Assembly: GCA_036279215.1 (NCBI GenBank)
Contig: DASUJO010000032.1
Span: 313-64,312, forward strand
DNA from: Candidatus Saccharimonadales bacterium
GTDB taxonomy: Bacteria; Patescibacteriota; Saccharimonadia; Saccharimonadales; UBA10212
Reading direction: 5' to 3'
DNA length: 64,000 bases
Both the position numbers and the translations under genes were made by a program. Shown here one piece after another: positions 33,813 to 61,923 of the stretch (its first letter is position 1; each line of letters opens with the position of its first letter). Under the pieces are notes generated by a model. That model was not told where the DNA came from. It did no database searches and worked only from the letters and a program-made list of their open reading frames with translations.

Positions 33813-34150
33813 TATTTAAGCTCCTTTCCCGAGGTTTTCATAACCCGGGCTTTGTTACCTTTATTGTCGGTTTTATAGCTGATGCGGGATGGTTTCTTTT
33901 TAGTTGAGTCATAAACAGCGATTTTACTTACCCAAATCGGCTTTGTCAGTTCCACTATTCCTCCCTGTGGGTTTACTCTTGTGGGTTTGATATGCCTTTT
34001 AACAATGTTGATACCTTCGACGGTTACTTTGTTCTGCTTCGGATGAAGCGCTAAGATTTTGCCTGTACGGCCTTTATGCTTGCCCGATCGGACAATAACC
34101 GTATCACCTTTTTTCAGCCTGATTTTATAAAGTTTAGGTTCACTCATCAT
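33812..34150 (-). CDS. rplX: 50S ribosomal protein uL24
   Basis: KOW motif [20 protein letters not shown]. Confidence 0.94.
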
Positions 34151-34518
34151 AATACCTCCGGCGCTAGAGAAATTATCCTGGTAAAGCCTTTTTCACGAAG
34201 TTCCCTTGGCACAGGGCCGAAAATACGCGTACCTCGCGGAGTTTTACCATCGTCAGAAAGTACAACCGCAGCGTTGTCATCAAATTTTATCAACGAACCG
34301 TCGGGTCGTTTTATCGGGCTGCGGGACCGGACGACAACCGCTTTAACTACGCTTTTACGCTTTACGGCGCCGGTGGGGCTGGCGGTTTTTACACTTGCCA
34401 CAACAATATCACCGACCCTCGCGTATCGCCGGCGGGTTCCGCCAAGCACGCGGATACACTGCAGCGAACGCGCGCCGCTGTTGTCTGTCGCAATCAGCCG
34501 TGATTCCTGCTGTATCAT
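34147..34518 (-). CDS. rplN: 50S ribosomal protein uL14
   Basis: [17 protein letters not shown]. Confidence 0.96.
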
Positions 34519-34889
34519 TCCGTCTCTCCTGCCGGCTGCTTGGTTTTAGCGGCTGATACCTTCGGTTTAGGAGCCGCTTTTGGCTGCTCTTTCTTCTCCA
34601 ATTCATCCATAGGAACATCTGCCGCCGCATCGGTTTCTTTGAATTCGGCGCCGGCTTTTTCTAGTATCTTGTCCAAAACGAAGCGTTTACGGGTGCTAAC
34701 CGGGCGTGACTCGCTAATAACTACCAGATCGCCTTCGCTAGCTTCATTTTTCTCATCATGAGCCATGAATTTGCGGTGTCTGGTGTACTGCTTCTTGTAA
34801 AGCGGATGGGTTTTCCGCATAACAACACGCACTACAATTGTTTTGTCGGCTTTATCGCTGTATACGCGGCCTCTGATTTGTCGCTTCAT
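34515..34889 (-). CDS. rpsQ: 30S ribosomal protein uS17 (C-terminal ~45-aa extension)
   Basis: [28 protein letters not shown]. Confidence 0.94.
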
Positions 34890-35089
34890 GAAATGTCCTC
34901 CTTGGCAAGCTGCTCGCCCAATATCGTTAGTACCCTGGCCAGATCTTTTCGCTTGGACCTCAGGATGCGCACGTTTTGGACTTCGCCGCTGTAAAGCCGG
35001 CGGCGCATCTCGGCGATTTCTTCTCGCAGGCGCGTTTGCTCTTTGGTTAGCTCGGCGGTTGATAATTTACGGATATCGGCAACTTTCAT
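34886..35089 (-). CDS. rpmC: 50S ribosomal protein uL29
   Basis: [28 protein letters not shown] 35089 lies 1 nt after the rplP stop. Confidence 0.93.
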
Positions 35090-35090
35090 C

Positions 35091-35507
35091 TTATTGTTCC
35101 TTCTTGACCAGAAAAGCCGTCTTAACCGGAAGTTTATGGCCGGCCAGCCGCATAGCCTCGCGGGCCACGTCTTCAGCCACGCCGTCCATTTCAAACATCA
35201 CGCTGCCAGGTTTAACTTTGGCGACAAAATACTCTGGATTTCCTTTGCCGCTGCCCATTTTTACATCCAATGGCTTCTTAGTTACAGGGGTGTGCGGGAA
35301 TATACGAATCCAAATCTGGCCGCCGCGCTTGATATAACGCGTCATGGCTTGGCGGGCTGCTTCAATCTGGCGGGCGTTTATCCGCATAGCTTCCTGGCTG
35401 ACTAGCCCGTAAGAACCGTATGCTAGGTCGTTCAGCGAAGTCGCCACGCCGCCGTGAATGCGGCCTTTGCGTACTTTGCGGTATTTAGTTCGGCTGGGCA
35501 TTAACAT
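35091..35507 (-). CDS. rplP: 50S ribosomal protein uL16
   Basis: [16 protein letters not shown]. Confidence 0.96.
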
Positions 35508-57242: not shown

Positions 57243-58562
57243 CTATAGTTCTGATTTGGGCAGGTGGCGGGCGGCCAGCGTACTGACCAGCCTCTCCAGG
57301 GATAACTCTTTTTCTTCGCCGCTTCGTAAGTCTTTTAGCTTGAACCGCCGCGACGCCAGTTCGTGCTCGCCAAGGAAAATTACGAATGGGACGCCTGATT
57401 TGGCGGCGCTTCTAACCTGCGCGTCAAGCTTGCGCCCGGTGGAATCTACCGCCAGCCGTAAGCCTTCGTCGCGCAGGTCGGCCAGAACCGGCTGGGCGGC
57501 TTCGTAAATGTCGCCAATGAGCACAACGTTGGCATCAGTTTCCGGCTCGAAGCGCGGCATCAGCTTATGTCCTTCCAAAAACATCTGCAGAGTTACGTCG
57601 CCCATGCCAAAGCCGACGGTCGGAACCGGTTCTACGCCGAACGCTCCTACCAAGCCGTCATAGCGGCCGCCGCCGAACATCGAGCGGTTATTTTCCGGGT
57701 GGTTATCATAAACCTCAAAAACTATATCGGTGTAATAATCGAAGCCGCGCGTCAGCGCCGGGTCAAAAGCAATGCTCTGCACGCCGCTGGCCAGCAGCAG
57801 CCCCATCAGCCGCTGAAGCTCTTTAACCGCCGGCAACTGCTGGACTACCAGCGGCAGTTCGCCAAGCGTTTTAACTTTCATTAGATCTGCCAGTTGGGAC
57901 AAAACATCCGATTGCTGCTGGGCGGGGCTTAGTAACAAGCTGGCGGATTGTTTGAATTCTTTTTCCGAGATTTTATCTTTTTTATCAATCAGGCGTACCA
58001 GCGGCTGTATTTGAGATTGTTCGAATTGGAAGTTATCCAGCAAAAACCAGTTCATCAGCTGGCGGCTGTTGAGCTTTATGGTGTAATTTTCCGGCTTGGC
58101 ACCAAACGCCTTTAGTATGCGGTCGGCAAGCAGGATGATTTCGTGGTCGGCTTCTATGCCGCCCACGCCGAAGATGTCTACGTTTAGCTGCCAGTGTTCG
58201 CGCAGCCGGCCGGCTTGCGGCCGCTCGTACCGCCATAAGTTGGGTAGGCTGTACCAGCGCACCGGATAAGACAGCTCCTGGCGCCGGCCGGCTACCAGCC
58301 GGCTGACACTGGGTGTCATTTCCGGCCTTAGTGTAACCGTGCGGCCGCCGCGGTCGGTAAACACGAACGTCTGTTCCACGACGATTTCCTCGGATGTTTT
58401 GCTCATATAGAGTTCAATCGGCTCTATGATTGGAGCGTCGTATTCCTGGTAGCCGAACTTCTCTACCGAATCGCGCAATACATTAAATATGTATTTCTGT
58501 ACGCGTTTATCCTCAGGATAGAAGTCTCTCGCGCCCTTATACGGTTGAACGGAAAGTGCCAT
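57243..58562 (-). CDS. hisS: Histidine--tRNA ligase
   Basis: GARDFYPED, LRPEMTPS and FGGGRYDGLV are class II motifs. Has a C-terminal anticodon-binding domain. Confidence 0.94.
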   Translation of the reverse strand: MALSVQPYKGARDFYPEDKRVQKYIFNVLRDSVEKFGYQEYDAPIIEPIELYMSKTSEEIVVEQTFVFTDRGGRTVTLRPEMTPSVSRLVAGRRQELSYPVRWYSLPNLWRYERPQAGRLREHWQLNVDIFGVGGIEADHEIILLADRILKAFGAKPENYTIKLNSRQLMNWFLLDNFQFEQSQIQPLVRLIDKKDKISEKEFKQSASLLLSPAQQQSDVLSQLADLMKVKTLGELPLVVQQLPAVKELQRLMGLLLASGVQSIAFDPALTRGFDYYTDIVFEVYDNHPENNRSMFGGGRYDGLVGAFGVEPVPTVGFGMGDVTLQMFLEGHKLMPRFEPETDANVVLIGDIYEAAQPVLADLRDEGLRLAVDSTGRKLDAQVRSAAKSGVPFVIFLGEHELASRRFKLKDLRSGEEKELSLERLVSTLAARHLPKSEL

Positions 58563-58582
58563 GGTGTTATTTTAACACTAGT

Positions 58583-59323
58583 ATGGCTAAAAACAGGCCG
58601 CGGCGCGGTTCTCCTTTGCACCTGACACCATCGTTTGAATTATTCGGCCGCAGCAAAGACATCGTTATAAAGAATATTTGGATTTTCGGGCCGCTGTATA
58701 TACTGCCGACGATTTTTATGATCCACTCCTGGATTTGGACGCCGGACAAGCCCGGCGCGCCGCAGCATTGGTGGTATTCACTGGACAGTATTGGTCCCGG
58801 CGCCTCGGCATCACCGATACCTTTCTTTTCGGGCTACACTCTGCTGGGCTTTTCACTGCTGTGGGGCTTGTTGGTATTAGTCGGCGGCGCCATCGTGCAG
58901 ATTATGACCCAAGCCGCCCAGCTGGAAGGCGCCGAAGGCAAAACCGTTACATTTGATAGCATTTGGAAAATCACCAAAGAATTGGGCTGGCGGATGGTCG
59001 GGCTGTATATCGTGCTGGTTTTGACGCTGTTTATCGGCTTTTTATTATTGATTATTCCGTTCTTTATATTTTTGCGGCGCTACTTCTTATCTCCTTATGT
59101 AATGCTAGATAAAAAGGTTAGCATCCAGGAAGCTATGAGCCGCAGCGCCGCCATGAGCAAACCGCATTCGGGCAGCGTCTGGGGAGTTATCGGCGTCATA
59201 TTTTTAATCGGCCTGGCCGGCGTAATACCGTTTATCGGCTGGTTGATTTCGTACGTACTAGGATTCTTTTATTCAGTCGCCCCGGCCCTGCGCTACCAGG
59301 AACTCAAGAAGCTTGGAAATTAG
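58583..59323 (+). CDS. Integral membrane protein (about 5 TM helices), function unknown
   Basis: ATG 58583 (MAKNRPRR). Hydrophobic helices throughout. Divergent from hisS with only 20 nt between the two starts. Confidence 0.65.
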   Translation: MAKNRPRRGSPLHLTPSFELFGRSKDIVIKNIWIFGPLYILPTIFMIHSWIWTPDKPGAPQHWWYSLDSIGPGASASPIPFFSGYTLLGFSLLWGLLVLVGGAIVQIMTQAAQLEGAEGKTVTFDSIWKITKELGWRMVGLYIVLVLTLFIGFLLLIIPFFIFLRRYFLSPYVMLDKKVSIQEAMSRSAAMSKPHSGSVWGVIGVIFLIGLAGVIPFIGWLISYVLGFFYSVAPALRYQELKKLGN

Positions 59324-59338
59324 ATATAATAAAGATAA

Positions 59339-59423
59339 GGGCAAGTGGTGGAATTGGTAGACACGCTAGGTTTAGGACCTAGTGCCGCAAGGCGTGGAGG
59401 TTCAAGTCCTCTCTTGCCCACCA
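59339..59423 (+). tRNA. tRNA-Leu (anticodon UAG), long variable arm, CCA encoded
   Basis: GGGCAAGTGGTGGAATTGGTAGACACGCTAGGTTTAGGACCTAGTGCCGCAAGGCGTGGAGGTTCAAGTCCTCTCTTGCCCACCA. Confidence 0.92.
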
Positions 59424-59505
59424 TGTGATTTTTGCTACTAACTTCTTAGAGGTCGTTCTGTTCCGGTCGGCGCTGTCGCAGAAACAGCAAAAATCGACAC
59501 TAGAT

Positions 59506-59532
59506 ACAGCTCGCAGGGGCTGTTTTTGTTTT
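59506..59532 (+). terminator. Possible terminator after tRNA-Leu
   Basis: ACAGC-tcgcaggg-GCTGT followed by TTTTGTTTT. The stem is short (5 bp). Confidence 0.3.
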
Positions 59533-59577
59533 AAGCCCACTTTCATGTTTGACCGGTAAGCGGGATAATGGACTCGC

Positions 59578-60501
59578 ATGGTAGTATCACCAACAATTCA
59601 TATTGGCCAGGTTCCGGACCCAACTGTTTTGGATGCTCTGGCTGATTTTGTCTGTGGGGACGATGCTGGTCGATACCCTGTCTACCGAAGTTCAACGTTC
59701 CTGACGCAGTTCTTCCAGTCAATCGGTATTAATGCCGTCCATGACGGGTCTACACGTAAATGGTGGGTGGTTGGGGTCTTGAATCAGTTAGACGCTCAGC
59801 AAATTGAGAAAGTAATCCTACGTCTTGTTGACCTTCGTGAATACAAGGGCGATCGAAAGCAACTTGGTCAGGCCGTTCGGAGTATGAACGACATCCTTGC
59901 AATGGAAGGTCTCTGCGTAGAGTTTCAGGGCACGCTACCCCACCTTAAACGGGCTGGCCCTATCGAACTGGACGCAGAGGAGTTATCAAAGCCTCCCGCA
60001 CCATCAGAAGAAGTCGATTTTCTAGAACGCCAGTTCGTTGAAGATATCCGAATAAGCGAGCTTGGGCTTGACTCCGTGATCACAGGCTTTCTTCAAGAAC
60101 GTGTGGATGAAATCCAAGCAATGCCGCGGAGCAAGGCTCCCTTAGGGACGATAATTCTACTCGGGAGCACCCTCGAAGGCTTGATTCTGGCACTTGCCCT
60201 GGAACACCCGAAGGAATTTATGTCCTCGGGTGCAGCACCCAGTGATAAGACTGGAAAGACCAAGAAATTATACGACTGGTCGCTGAATGAGTTCATCAAT
60301 GTCGGGCTGGACATCCGGCTTATTGACGTGGATGTTGCAAAATTCAGTCATGCACTCCGGGACTTCCGTAACTACATACACCCATATCACCAGATGTCTC
60401 AGTCTTTTAGCCCCGATCAGCACACGGTCGATATTTGCTGGCAAGTATTCAAGGCGGCGTACAGTCAATTGAAAAATCGAGCATCAAAAGTATTGAAGTA
60501 G
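59578..60501 (+). CDS. Hypothetical protein A (307 aa) with C-terminal HEPN-like helical domain (Rx4-6H context LRDFRNYIHP)
   Basis: Clean ORF immediately followed by the partner ORF (TAG|ATG). Motif FSHALRDFRNYIHPYHQ. No housekeeping family recognised. Confidence 0.6.
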   Translation: MVVSPTIHIGQVPDPTVLDALADFVCGDDAGRYPVYRSSTFLTQFFQSIGINAVHDGSTRKWWVVGVLNQLDAQQIEKVILRLVDLREYKGDRKQLGQAVRSMNDILAMEGLCVEFQGTLPHLKRAGPIELDAEELSKPPAPSEEVDFLERQFVEDIRISELGLDSVITGFLQERVDEIQAMPRSKAPLGTIILLGSTLEGLILALALEHPKEFMSSGAAPSDKTGKTKKLYDWSLNEFINVGLDIRLIDVDVAKFSHALRDFRNYIHPYHQMSQSFSPDQHTVDICWQVFKAAYSQLKNRASKVLK

Positions 60502-61281
60502 ATGAATCCATACGAGTTACTAGAGTCTTTTGAAGAGAAAGGGGCGGCAGAGGGTCTGACCGACGGCGAAAAAGAGCTTTTGAGACTTGTTAGAAAAGTA
60601 GTTAAGCGAATCGCCGAGCTAGAAACGCTTCTTTTCATGAGTACTCCCGAAGGAGAGAAGGATAAGCACTTGGATAAGCATGACGTGGAGATGAGAGAGT
60701 ATGTTTATCTATATGGACCAGCGATTTTTGGCGACCTAAAGCCTACGCCACCGCATGAAGAACTTGGTGTAGCAGACAAGGACACTGCGATCAAAAATGC
60801 TCGTTTGTGGGCAAGACGCGAAGAGGCTAGAAAAGAAGGCTGGCTAATAGAAGCGGTGGCACTGACAGCCTATGAGCTCGAAGAGTGGTTGCGAATATGG
60901 ATTGCATCTCAAGGAGGAGGAGACTTTTATCCGGACGACAACTGGACTTTAGGCAGCATCATTGCAGAAGCCGAGAAACACAGACTGGATCTAAAATTGC
61001 TCGAGCGCTTGAAGAAGTTCAATAAAACCAGGAAGCGTGCTATCCATCGACTTCTGCGAGGAGAAATAGCGTATGAAGAACTCGGTAAAGCTTATGACCT
61101 AGATCTCAACTTGCCAGAAGATCTAAAACGGTGGATAGTCAAAGCCCTACCTAATTTCGCAGAAGCATCACCTGAGTGGGACTCAATTGGCAAATGGTCT
61201 AGATGGGATCGGGACCCTTCAGTGGTCGAGCGGGAATTTAGTGGTGGAGGTCCGAAGCCGAGCGACCGCGCGGGCGCTTAA
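60502..61281 (+). CDS. Hypothetical protein B (259 aa) with HEPN-like motif (KFNKTRKRAIHRLL, Rx4H)
   Basis: ATG abuts the stop of protein A. Looks helical. Rich in AGA, CTA and GGA codons, unlike the neighbours. Confidence 0.6.
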   Translation: MNPYELLESFEEKGAAEGLTDGEKELLRLVRKVVKRIAELETLLFMSTPEGEKDKHLDKHDVEMREYVYLYGPAIFGDLKPTPPHEELGVADKDTAIKNARLWARREEARKEGWLIEAVALTAYELEEWLRIWIASQGGGDFYPDDNWTLGSIIAEAEKHRLDLKLLERLKKFNKTRKRAIHRLLRGEIAYEELGKAYDLDLNLPEDLKRWIVKALPNFAEASPEWDSIGKWSRWDRDPSVVEREFSGGGPKPSDRAGA

Positions 61282-61389
61282 CGCTCGGGCCTGGGTCTTC
61301 GGGCTCGTCGCTTAGTAGCTTCAGCAACTTGTCGAAGGTCCCTGTGGGGTTTGAAAGATGCCCAGTTAAGACCACCATGGTATATATGA

Positions 61390-61923
61390 TTAGTCTTTGC
61401 GGTAAAACGCCAGCTGGCCGTCGCCGTATTCTTTGACCGCCAGCGGGGTTACGCCGGAATAAGCCGGTGGCTCAACCCTTCCCGGGGCAGACATGACAGC
61501 AACGCGGCCCTTTTTAAGGTGCCTGTCAATCAGTTTTTGGATTAAAGGCAGCTGGAGGTTGTCGTACGGCGGGTCCATTAAAAGAAGGTCGAATTTAGTG
61601 TCCGGATTGTTATCGCTCCAGCCGCTGGCGTTGGCGCGGACGGCTTTGACTTTATCGGCTAAATCCAGAAGGACTATGTTCTTATAAATATTGGCGTGGG
61701 CCCGCTTATCGTGTTCAATAACCAGCGTGCCGGCGGCCCCTCGGCTGATTGCCTCAAAACTTATAGCGCCGGTGCCGCCGAACGGGTCCAGTACCGTTAG
61801 TCCTTCGATATCACCCAGAGTATTAAACAGCGCGCCGCGCATCTTTTCGCTCATCGGGTTATACGTATTGCGCGGCGGGTCATTAAACCGCCTGCCTTTT
61901 AAGCTTCCGGATATAATTCTCAT
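61390..61923 (-). CDS. rsmD: 16S rRNA (guanine966-N2)-methyltransferase RsmD
   Basis: MRIISGSLKGRRF, LDPFGGTGAISFEAISRGA and LLLMDPPY. Confidence 0.9.
   Translation of the reverse strand: MRIISGSLKGRRFNDPPRNTYNPMSEKMRGALFNTLGDIEGLTVLDPFGGTGAISFEAISRGAAGTLVIEHDKRAHANIYKNIVLLDLADKVKAVRANASGWSDNNPDTKFDLLLMDPPYDNLQLPLIQKLIDRHLKKGRVAVMSAPGRVEPPAYSGVTPLAVKEYGDGQLAFYRKD

Follow-up and report, generated by a model that had tools for sequence, protein, structure and literature searches.

In the 64,000-nucleotide stretch of contig DASUJO010000032.1 (assembly GCA_036279215.1, Candidatus Saccharimonadales bacterium) that we analysed and call the window, positions 59424-61377 (~1.95 kb) are an acquired islet without an integrase, located at the 3' end of a tRNA-Leu(UAG) gene. 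The islet carries two plus-strand genes, A and B, whose products are recorded in databases as hypothetical proteins of a Candidatus Saccharimonadales metagenome-assembled genome, and which are neighbours in one islet and not an obligate two-gene system. An earlier interpretation of the DNA letters alone (hereafter the sequence-only reading) had proposed the two as a paired HEPN+HEPN defence or toxin system of an undescribed kind. We lean slightly towards a different view, in which the islet harbours two unrelated, independently distributed genes, each a self-contained candidate for a HEPN-type RNase resembling abortive-infection (Abi) effectors. The islet, its borders, the distributions of the two families, the invariance of their motifs and the lack of A-B co-occurrence are matters of observation. 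The islet and its landmark tRNA comprise the following elements, L001 being a homologous islet in a second genome.

59339-59423, plus strand: tRNA-Leu(UAG), which joins the islet on the left through its 3' end (...CCCACCA) (ARAGORN; Rfam tRNA model, 58.5 bits).
59424-59509, plus strand: left end of the islet, a conserved non-coding leader aligned with L001 7421-7506 and absent from empty sites.
59578-60501, plus strand: gene A, 307 aa (open reading frame (ORF) call).
60502-61281, plus strand: gene B, 259 aa (ORF call).
61335-61377, plus strand: right end of the islet, ending in CCACCA (61372-61377) and aligned with L001 8984-9027.

The window genes and tRNAs were mapped onto 80 species-level Saccharimonadia loci around hisS, with genes in the fetched loci called by a simple longest-ORF heuristic. 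In these loci recG is as a rule followed by rsmD, tRNA-Leu(UAG), a variable stretch, (a membrane-protein gene), hisS and tig, with between 22 bp and 7.8 kb separating tRNA-Leu and hisS. None of the 80 hisS loci carries A or B at this place. In the closest relatives, L027 (hisS 83% identical) and L016 (77%), the sites are empty, the stop codon of the membrane-protein gene lying 9-12 nt from the tRNA 3' end. A homologue of B, 69% identical, sits in the same interval in L001/L002 (GCA_040961535/285); there the order in L001 is tRNA-Leu, a 160-aa nucleotidyltransferase (NTase; PF10706, 59.6 bits) and then, 8 nt further downstream, B, such that an NTase and not A precedes B. Both ends of the islet are conserved between the window and L001. 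The left end begins at the base directly after the tRNA CCA, and its 85-nt local alignment scores 86, compared with 14.2 +/- 2.1 for shuffled sequences, a score that 0 of 2000 shuffles reach; the leader is absent from all others among 173 loci. The right end, with a 44-nt local alignment scoring 36 (shuffles 14.9 +/- 2.1, 0 of 2000 reaching it), stops exactly at CCACCA in the window as well as in L001, and was likewise not found in empty sites or any other locus examined. Conserved islet ends were thus found in two genomes only. The short direct repeat CCACCA(TG) (6-8 nt, family D6) lies at 59418-59425 and 61372-61379, and the distal CCACCA at 61372-61377 appears as an att-like (attachment-site-like) scar repeating the tRNA 3' end. 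Because the conserved ends finish at this CCACCA repeat of the tRNA 3' end, we set the bounds of the islet at 59424 and 61377. Together with atypical codons, the empty sites of the closest relatives and the conserved ends bear out the suggestion of the sequence-only reading that a tRNA-proximal segment had been acquired horizontally.

The two islet ends have changed far less than the gene between them. Window and L001 are 76-85% identical at the left end and 79% at the right end, compared with 39% at third codon positions of B; the islet ends therefore appear to be under constraint, perhaps as att sites, promoters or terminators. The figure of just 39% also rules out a recent horizontal transfer between the two islet-bearing genomes. 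A structured RNA or RNA antitoxin in the leader found no backing either, as shown by the lack of an Rfam match, a fold z-score of -0.44 and no covariation. With regard to the orientation of the islet, the stop codon of the membrane-protein gene abuts the 5' end of tRNA-Leu in the window, but its 3' end in the relatives (L027 8166-8275, L016 8170-8270), and the block of tRNA plus islet (59339-61377) has therefore been inverted in the window. The rsmD-hisS interval seems prone to inversion. In L063 and L091 the tRNA-Leu is also found on the opposite strand. A plausible history would be that the islet entered at the tRNA 3' end, probably via a recombinase supplied in trans, that its first gene was exchanged later, and that the tRNA and islet were inverted together.

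The sequence-only reading had placed the two ORFs side by side, and correctly so: the A-B junction at 60499-60504 is TAG|ATG, with a spacer of 0 nt. To follow the two families beyond the window, 84 loci of A homologues, 60 of them with at least 800 nt of downstream sequence, were screened with a hidden Markov model of the B family, which recovered B of the window as positive control at 2e-59. A B-family gene was present at none of the 84 loci, including none of the 60 with sufficient downstream sequence, and A was absent from all seven other contexts of B homologues. Homologues of A and B were hence not found together beyond the window, and the idea of a paired HEPN+HEPN system is not supported. 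The same applies to the suggestion that such an architecture was undescribed, given that a HEPN-HEPN operon, formed by the Bxe_C0808 family and AbiU2, is already in the literature (PMC3710099).

We regard it as rather unlikely that A and B nonetheless make up a functional two-component module, in which the exchangeable first gene (A here, the NTase in L001) would serve to regulate B, the HEPN protein, or to neutralise it, either as a toxin-antitoxin system resembling MNT-HEPN (MntA-HepT; MNT, minimal nucleotidyltransferase) or as a HEPN-HEPN hetero-oligomer. Such a module would account for the abutting TAG|ATG, for the order tRNA-Leu, leader, gene X, B common to both islets, with X being the PF10706 NTase in L001, and for the 20-nt overlap of another B homologue with a Ymh HEPN gene; the operon of Bxe_C0808 with AbiU2 provides a precedent. 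It is at odds, however, with the empty count at the 60 A loci, with four of the seven other B contexts, which lack a tightly linked same-strand partner, with the wider B family, which mostly consists of solitary proteins of ~140-200 aa, and with A itself, which elsewhere is solitary or has other partners. The window cassette contains no NTase, and an NTase precedes B only in L001/L002; ORF inspection and family searches agree with the sequence-only reading that neither an MNT nor an integrase gene lies inside the A/B cassette. HEPN genes do recur beside HEPN genes, B with Ymh and A homologues with DUF4145 proteins. These adjacencies fit a stacking of genes in defence islands, and to a functional HEPN-HEPN partnership we assign a small probability. 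Under the reading of two independent genes, A and B came to adjoin because cargo genes are stacked and swapped in the islet, with no obligate pairing.

Both proteins carry an arginine-histidine motif that could form the active site of a HEPN RNase.

60358-60381, plus strand: motif of A, R261-D-F-R264-N265-Y-I-H268 (RDFRNYIH, Rx6H), a candidate catalytic signature together with E200 of the GSxLEG block (translation).
61030-61047, plus strand: motif of B, R177-K-R-A-I-H182 (RKRAIH, Rx4H), with the family consensus RNRAIH (translation).

An alignment of 54 A sequences from several phyla, reaching down to 21-32% identity, revealed R175, G196, L199, E200, P221, R261, R264, N265, H268 and P269 to be invariant. 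Across 106 B-family sequences no column other than R177 and H182 is invariant; E117 is at least 90% conserved. HepT-type HEPN domains carry their motif about two-thirds into the domain, and the motifs of A and B both lie about two-thirds into a helical domain of ~140 aa. The AlphaFold2 model of A (confidence score pLDDT 91.7) consists of an alpha/beta N-terminal domain (~1-130), a linker and a helical C-terminal domain (~160-307). B is composed of a helical N-terminal extension (~1-75) and a helical core (~85-225) common to a family of ~180-aa proteins; its model, built from a 10-sequence alignment, is all-helical (pLDDT 56.7). In Foldseek searches the whole two-domain model of A matched 1ylm (YutE/DUF86; probability 0.82, E 0.22, TM-target 0.41), the HEPN toxin 7ae6 (TM-target 0.47) and a phage HEPN protein (probability 0.66), its highest-probability matches all being HEPN proteins. 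Relatives of A, in turn, gave sub-threshold Pfam matches over the motif region to HEPN_LA2681 (0.018), DUF4145 (0.053-0.09; 13.3 bits, cutoff 23.1) and HEPN_STY4199. DUF4145, LA2681, Ymh and DUF3644 have been classed as HEPN families (Anantharaman et al., PMC3710099). Given the invariant motifs and these matches, none of them significant, a HEPN identity of A and B is probable; for B the HEPN fold is presumed. Of the sequence-only proposal that both are HEPN-like proteins with an Rx4-6H signature in helical C-terminal regions, the motif part stood, the R and H residues being conserved in distant homologues; the family assignment is less secure, there being no significant profile or Foldseek match.

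Several results weigh against the reading of A and B as two independent HEPN-type defence proteins in an acquired islet. Neither protein has a significant match in Pfam, NCBIfam, PADLOC or PHROGs, whether the proteins themselves, the family consensuses or the 54+106+10 relatives are searched. The best Pfam E-values of 0.018-0.09 are below the gathering scores and hence do not assign A to HEPN by profile, the Foldseek matches of A have E-values of 0.2-1, none of them significant, and B, with its low-confidence model, retrieved generic helical bundles only, which is uninformative. HepS (9oij), the best PDB match of the B-family profile, is aligned on the motif but has E = 0.33, and a direct hhalign comparison of A and B brings the motif regions into register at E = 0.1-0.14. 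The gene arrangement adds two points: a stop and start codon abutting without spacer suggests co-translation of A and B, and B is the second gene in both islets. Moreover, the rsmD-hisS interval is a poorly syntenic stretch and no dedicated defence island, neither A nor B was found on IMG/VR contigs, and no integrase was seen in the islet or among the genes called up to 8 kb to either side in L001, the profile screen not having extended to the remainder of the window.

Further searches gave a similar picture. A itself has no Pfam match at E <= 1 and B itself none, including none to DUF86/HEPN; among the 106 B relatives there was one DUF3644 match (0.0031), not significant once multiple testing is taken into account. 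Sequence-profile searches of the PDB with four alignments yielded chance-level matches only (FAM118B, HepS, bL9m), and when the A and B profiles were compared by hhalign with 147 proteins encoded nearby, among them two bona fide DUF4145 proteins, no match emerged. It is conceivable, though we hold it unlikely, that the helical R...H domains are not HEPN nucleases but nucleotide- or ligand-binding or regulatory domains (compare the non-catalytic KNTase_C/NTase substrate-binding relatives) of accessory cargo proteins that take no part in RNA cleavage or abortive infection. The lack of a significant match to any HEPN family or structure would then need no explanation, fusions of B-family proteins to HAD-like hydrolases and the NTase neighbour in L001 also fit nucleotide metabolism, and the spacing in A is unusual, R264-x3-H268 being under the canonical spacing and only R261-x6-H268 fitting. 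Yet R and H are the sole invariant columns in 106 B relatives, whose consensus is the canonical RNxxxH, the motifs occupy the expected position in the helical domains of both proteins, the higher-probability fold matches of A are all HEPN proteins, and the neighbourhoods of A are rich in defence genes.

These neighbourhoods were seen in a large family. Homologues of A form 1,815 clusters (at 90% identity, E <= 1e-3) from several phyla, and include another Saccharimonadales protein as well as distant relatives on Prevotella and Streptomyces replicons; an Acidithrix homologue (P0037) bears the UniProt name 'DUF4145 domain-containing protein', a source annotation only. Genes within 1.5 kb of 84 A homologues encode, after de-duplication, among others N6_Mtase, Eco57I, RE_AlwI, BsuBI_PstI_RE, Type_ISP_C, ResIII and RVT_1 proteins, and also SMC/AAA_21/23/29, Nmad3, UvrD and the two bona fide DUF4145 proteins. 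Single A loci lie beside a TIR protein with an OLD nuclease, insertion sequence (IS) elements, an acetyltransferase, an HNH-like gene or a giant AAA protein. The neighbourhoods of A homologues show a defence-island-like pattern, which supports, for A, the defence association put forward in the sequence-only reading. In a Streptomyces locus (L180 1-3804), a full-length A homologue starts 2 nt past a very large AAA-domain gene.

The two domains of A also occur separately in plasmid proteins, the N-terminal domain being fused to other C-termini on conjugative plasmids and the C-terminal domain occurring with other N-termini. The C-terminal domain alone is found on Paraburkholderia pBIL (L175 1724-5685), in a 299-aa protein whose gene has a site-specific integrase on one side and a PIN-domain gene on the other, and also in Deinococcus. 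The N-terminal domain without the A C-terminus is present in plasmid proteins of Ensifer (L177 3971-4966), Rhodococcus (L178 3977-5002), Paracoccus and Corynebacterium. The one partner of A that recurred was a 246-aa gene with an HNH-like Cys/His pattern, located 17-33 nt downstream of A homologues at 12 loci (L106, L107, L110, L112-L114, L118-L120, L123, L135, L157), all from one closely related lineage. At six of the 12 a 409-aa gene comes next (for example L118 2357-3097, 3183-4185), and the three genes could constitute a module in which A has a non-B partner. That the 246-aa gene is a hidden relative of B was ruled out, as it is HNH-like, comes from a single lineage and has no significant hhalign match to the B family (E = 0.21).

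The B family is smaller. A word-indexed search returned 10 close homologues, in which FNKTRNRAIHRLLRGEI is kept, and an exhaustive profile search 151 representatives at E <= 1e-3, most of them solitary proteins of 140-200 aa that match residues ~60-220 of B. Homologues of B neighbour an NTase, an HpaII restriction-modification system with Vsr (and a HAD hydrolase), a serine recombinase, a Ymh protein, an rve fragment and a GIY-YIG gene; B was not found on plasmids. In L011 (3010-4504), the B homologue overlaps the downstream Ymh-family HEPN gene (PF09509, E = 5.9e-25) by 20 nt. About 12 relatives of ~410 aa (P0147, P0154, P0155 and P0170 among them) have the B-like Rx4H domain at the C-terminus and a divergent HAD-like hydrolase at the N-terminus, with P0147 scoring above the HAD_2 cutoff; next to the B homologue of L003/L004, a HAD hydrolase is encoded by a gene of its own in divergent orientation (L003 4263-4907). 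These arrangements suggest a recurrent link of the B family to HAD proteins. A phage origin of A and B was not borne out, neither protein being found on IMG/VR contigs.

If A and B are HEPN proteins, each should work as a self-contained sensor-effector. A would combine an N-terminal alpha/beta domain, presumably a sensor or adaptor, with a C-terminal DUF4145-like HEPN domain (E200, R261-x6-H268), and B would place a helical extension in front of a HEPN-like core (E117, R177-x4-H182). The HEPN-like domain of each protein would homo-oligomerise, giving rise to a composite active site of R and H residues; until a phage-derived trigger is bound, the N-terminal part would keep the protein inactive, and the activated protein would cut tRNA or mRNA, arresting the infected cell. 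We propose this mechanism because of the analogy with RAZR, HepS and DARNA, from which we infer that A and B oligomerise, act as RNases upon a phage trigger and serve in defence. Single-protein HEPN Abi systems are established in the cases of RAZR (PMC13017515) and HepS (PMC13043305), and also DARNA.

RAZR is a close parallel to A. It shows that a DUF4145 domain with widely spaced R and H can be an active Abi RNase, and has been compared structurally with 7AE6 (PMC13017515). Like A, RAZR is a single polypeptide joining a non-catalytic N-terminal domain, a zinc finger in RAZR, to a divergent C-terminal HEPN domain (DUF4145). In both, the R...H spacing exceeds the canonical one (R146/H154 in RAZR, R261/H268 in A), 7AE6, the structural neighbour of the RAZR HEPN domain, is also among the Foldseek matches of A, and both occur in defence contexts. 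Unlike RAZR, A has no Cys4 zinc ribbon, its N-terminal part being an unrelated alpha/beta domain; it is below the Pfam DUF4145 threshold (13 bits vs 23.1) and has no PADLOC match. A second architecture of this sort is that of AbiJ, with a variable N-terminal part and a C-terminal HEPN domain (PMC3710099), which resembles A in its modular domains and in solitary genes near restriction-modification systems, whereas A matches neither Abi_C/AbiJ models nor AbiJ N-terminal Pfam models.

For B, a parallel is offered by HepS, a single-protein HEPN Abi system of prophage Gifsy-1 that cuts tRNA anticodon loops (PMC13043305, PDB 9oij). Its alignment to the B-family profile, which is not significant, extends over F..I..A..LGL...L..L..N..RN..H and thus includes the Rx4H; HepS is, like B, a small helical protein, and works as a single-gene system. 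B differs in its ~75-aa N-terminal extension and is not prophage-borne here. The MNT-HEPN systems (MntA-HepT, type VII toxin-antitoxin) also invite comparison, as HepT toxins share the Rx4H and the small helical domain with B, and as an NTase gene is located 8 nt upstream of the B homologue in the L001 islet. In contrast to these systems, the window has no NTase, other B homologues are also without an NTase partner, and B has no DUF86/HEPN Pfam match. The L001 enzyme moreover belongs to the ANT(2'')-type family PF10706, which we take to be distinct from the MNT family.

The islet as a whole resembles tRNA-linked genomic islands, among which integrase-less cargo modules with partial tRNA repeats at their flanks are known, for example in tycheposon-type hotspots. 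It shares with them the insertion at a tRNA 3' end, a distal short repeat of the tRNA end, presence or absence among relatives and an exchange of cargo between conserved ends. It differs in that there is no integrase in or near it, the repeat is 6-8 nt, two genomes have the ends, and the tRNA and islet are inverted. We consider it quite doubtful that the islet represents a still undescribed cassette family of the candidate phyla radiation (CPR), lacking integrases and targeted to tRNA-Leu(UAG), with functional ends (recombination or expression signals) and a swappable regulator or sensor gene (a DUF4145-like HEPN gene; the NTase in L001) that controls B as a fixed HEPN effector, HEPN-HEPN pairing included. 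That A and B perform a core, vertically inherited housekeeping function, such as RNA processing tied to tRNA-Leu or rsmD, is very improbable and largely refuted: although the flanking genes are core and B occupies the same interval of a second Saccharimonadales genome as a long-diverged copy, 0 of 80 Saccharimonadia hisS loci have A or B, the closest relatives are empty, the A family is scattered over phyla and plasmids, and the codon usage is atypical.

The surroundings of the islet, too, were compared across the class. A dedicated defence island at tRNA-Leu was ruled out, as the cargo between rsmD and hisS across Saccharimonadia is mostly housekeeping (pyrF, SpoU, DinB, hisG/hisD, aminoacyl-tRNA synthetases), with few defence-like genes. 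In the window, hisS, tig and recG flank the A/B locus; further elements beside or within the islet are the following.

58556-59323, plus strand: membrane-protein gene, a conserved neighbour outside the islet (ORF call; synteny in relatives).
59506-59533, plus strand: terminator-like hairpin and T-run between the tRNA and gene A (consensus scan; weak).
61390-61923, minus strand: rsmD, a core flanking gene outside the islet, convergent with B (ORF call; synteny in relatives).

The number of terminator-like sites in the consensus scan is no higher than in shuffles. With hisS, rsmD and recG found around the locus, the flanks are core genes, as the sequence-only reading had stated, and its further remarks on orientation and codon choice proved accurate. 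The cassette runs against the prevailing strand, the minus strand holding 54 of the 61 long ORFs of the window. A and B depart modestly from the rest of the window in codon usage, B ranking 4th (z -2.0) and A 6th (z -1.6) among the 61 long ORFs; seven of the 20 Arg codons of B are AGA, and its G+C content at third codon positions (0.452) is the lowest in the window, which has a mean of 0.558 (standard deviation 0.049).

The number of defence systems recognised in Patescibacteria/CPR genomes is very small (PMC12366544). If A or B were an active HEPN abortive-infection nuclease, they would be new candidates for the phage resistance of tiny epibiont genomes, and two protein families without a Pfam, NCBIfam, PADLOC or PHROGs model could be given names. 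The A family in particular, with more than 1,800 clusters at 90% identity, is a large one, found in defence-island-like contexts across several phyla. We see A and B as putative solitary defence candidates of HEPN type that lack a family model, a kind already known; they would not amount to a new type of system, their pairing not being conserved. The islet, for its part, offers a small and tractable case of cargo being exchanged at a tRNA hotspot that lacks a resident integrase, because conservation is higher at its ends than at synonymous sites of B.

A few minor observations concern the wider window and the related loci. The most atypical codon usage in the window is that of two plus-strand ORFs at 34076-34549 and 34843-35337 (z -2.4 and -3.4); all long ORFs neighbouring them are on the minus strand, and the two are probably spurious antisense ORFs and not genes. 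The GTG start of the membrane-protein ORF overlaps the start of the divergent, minus-strand hisS ORF by 7 nt (58556-58562), and the start of one of them may have been called too far upstream. In L014 (4680-6830), the closest locus by hisS identity with long flanks, recG is directly followed by tRNA-Leu, with no rsmD homologue detected between them. L001 (302-6004), finally, encodes between recG and rsmD a 1,900-aa protein with GDSL-lipase and FG-GAP domains, which has no counterpart in the window.

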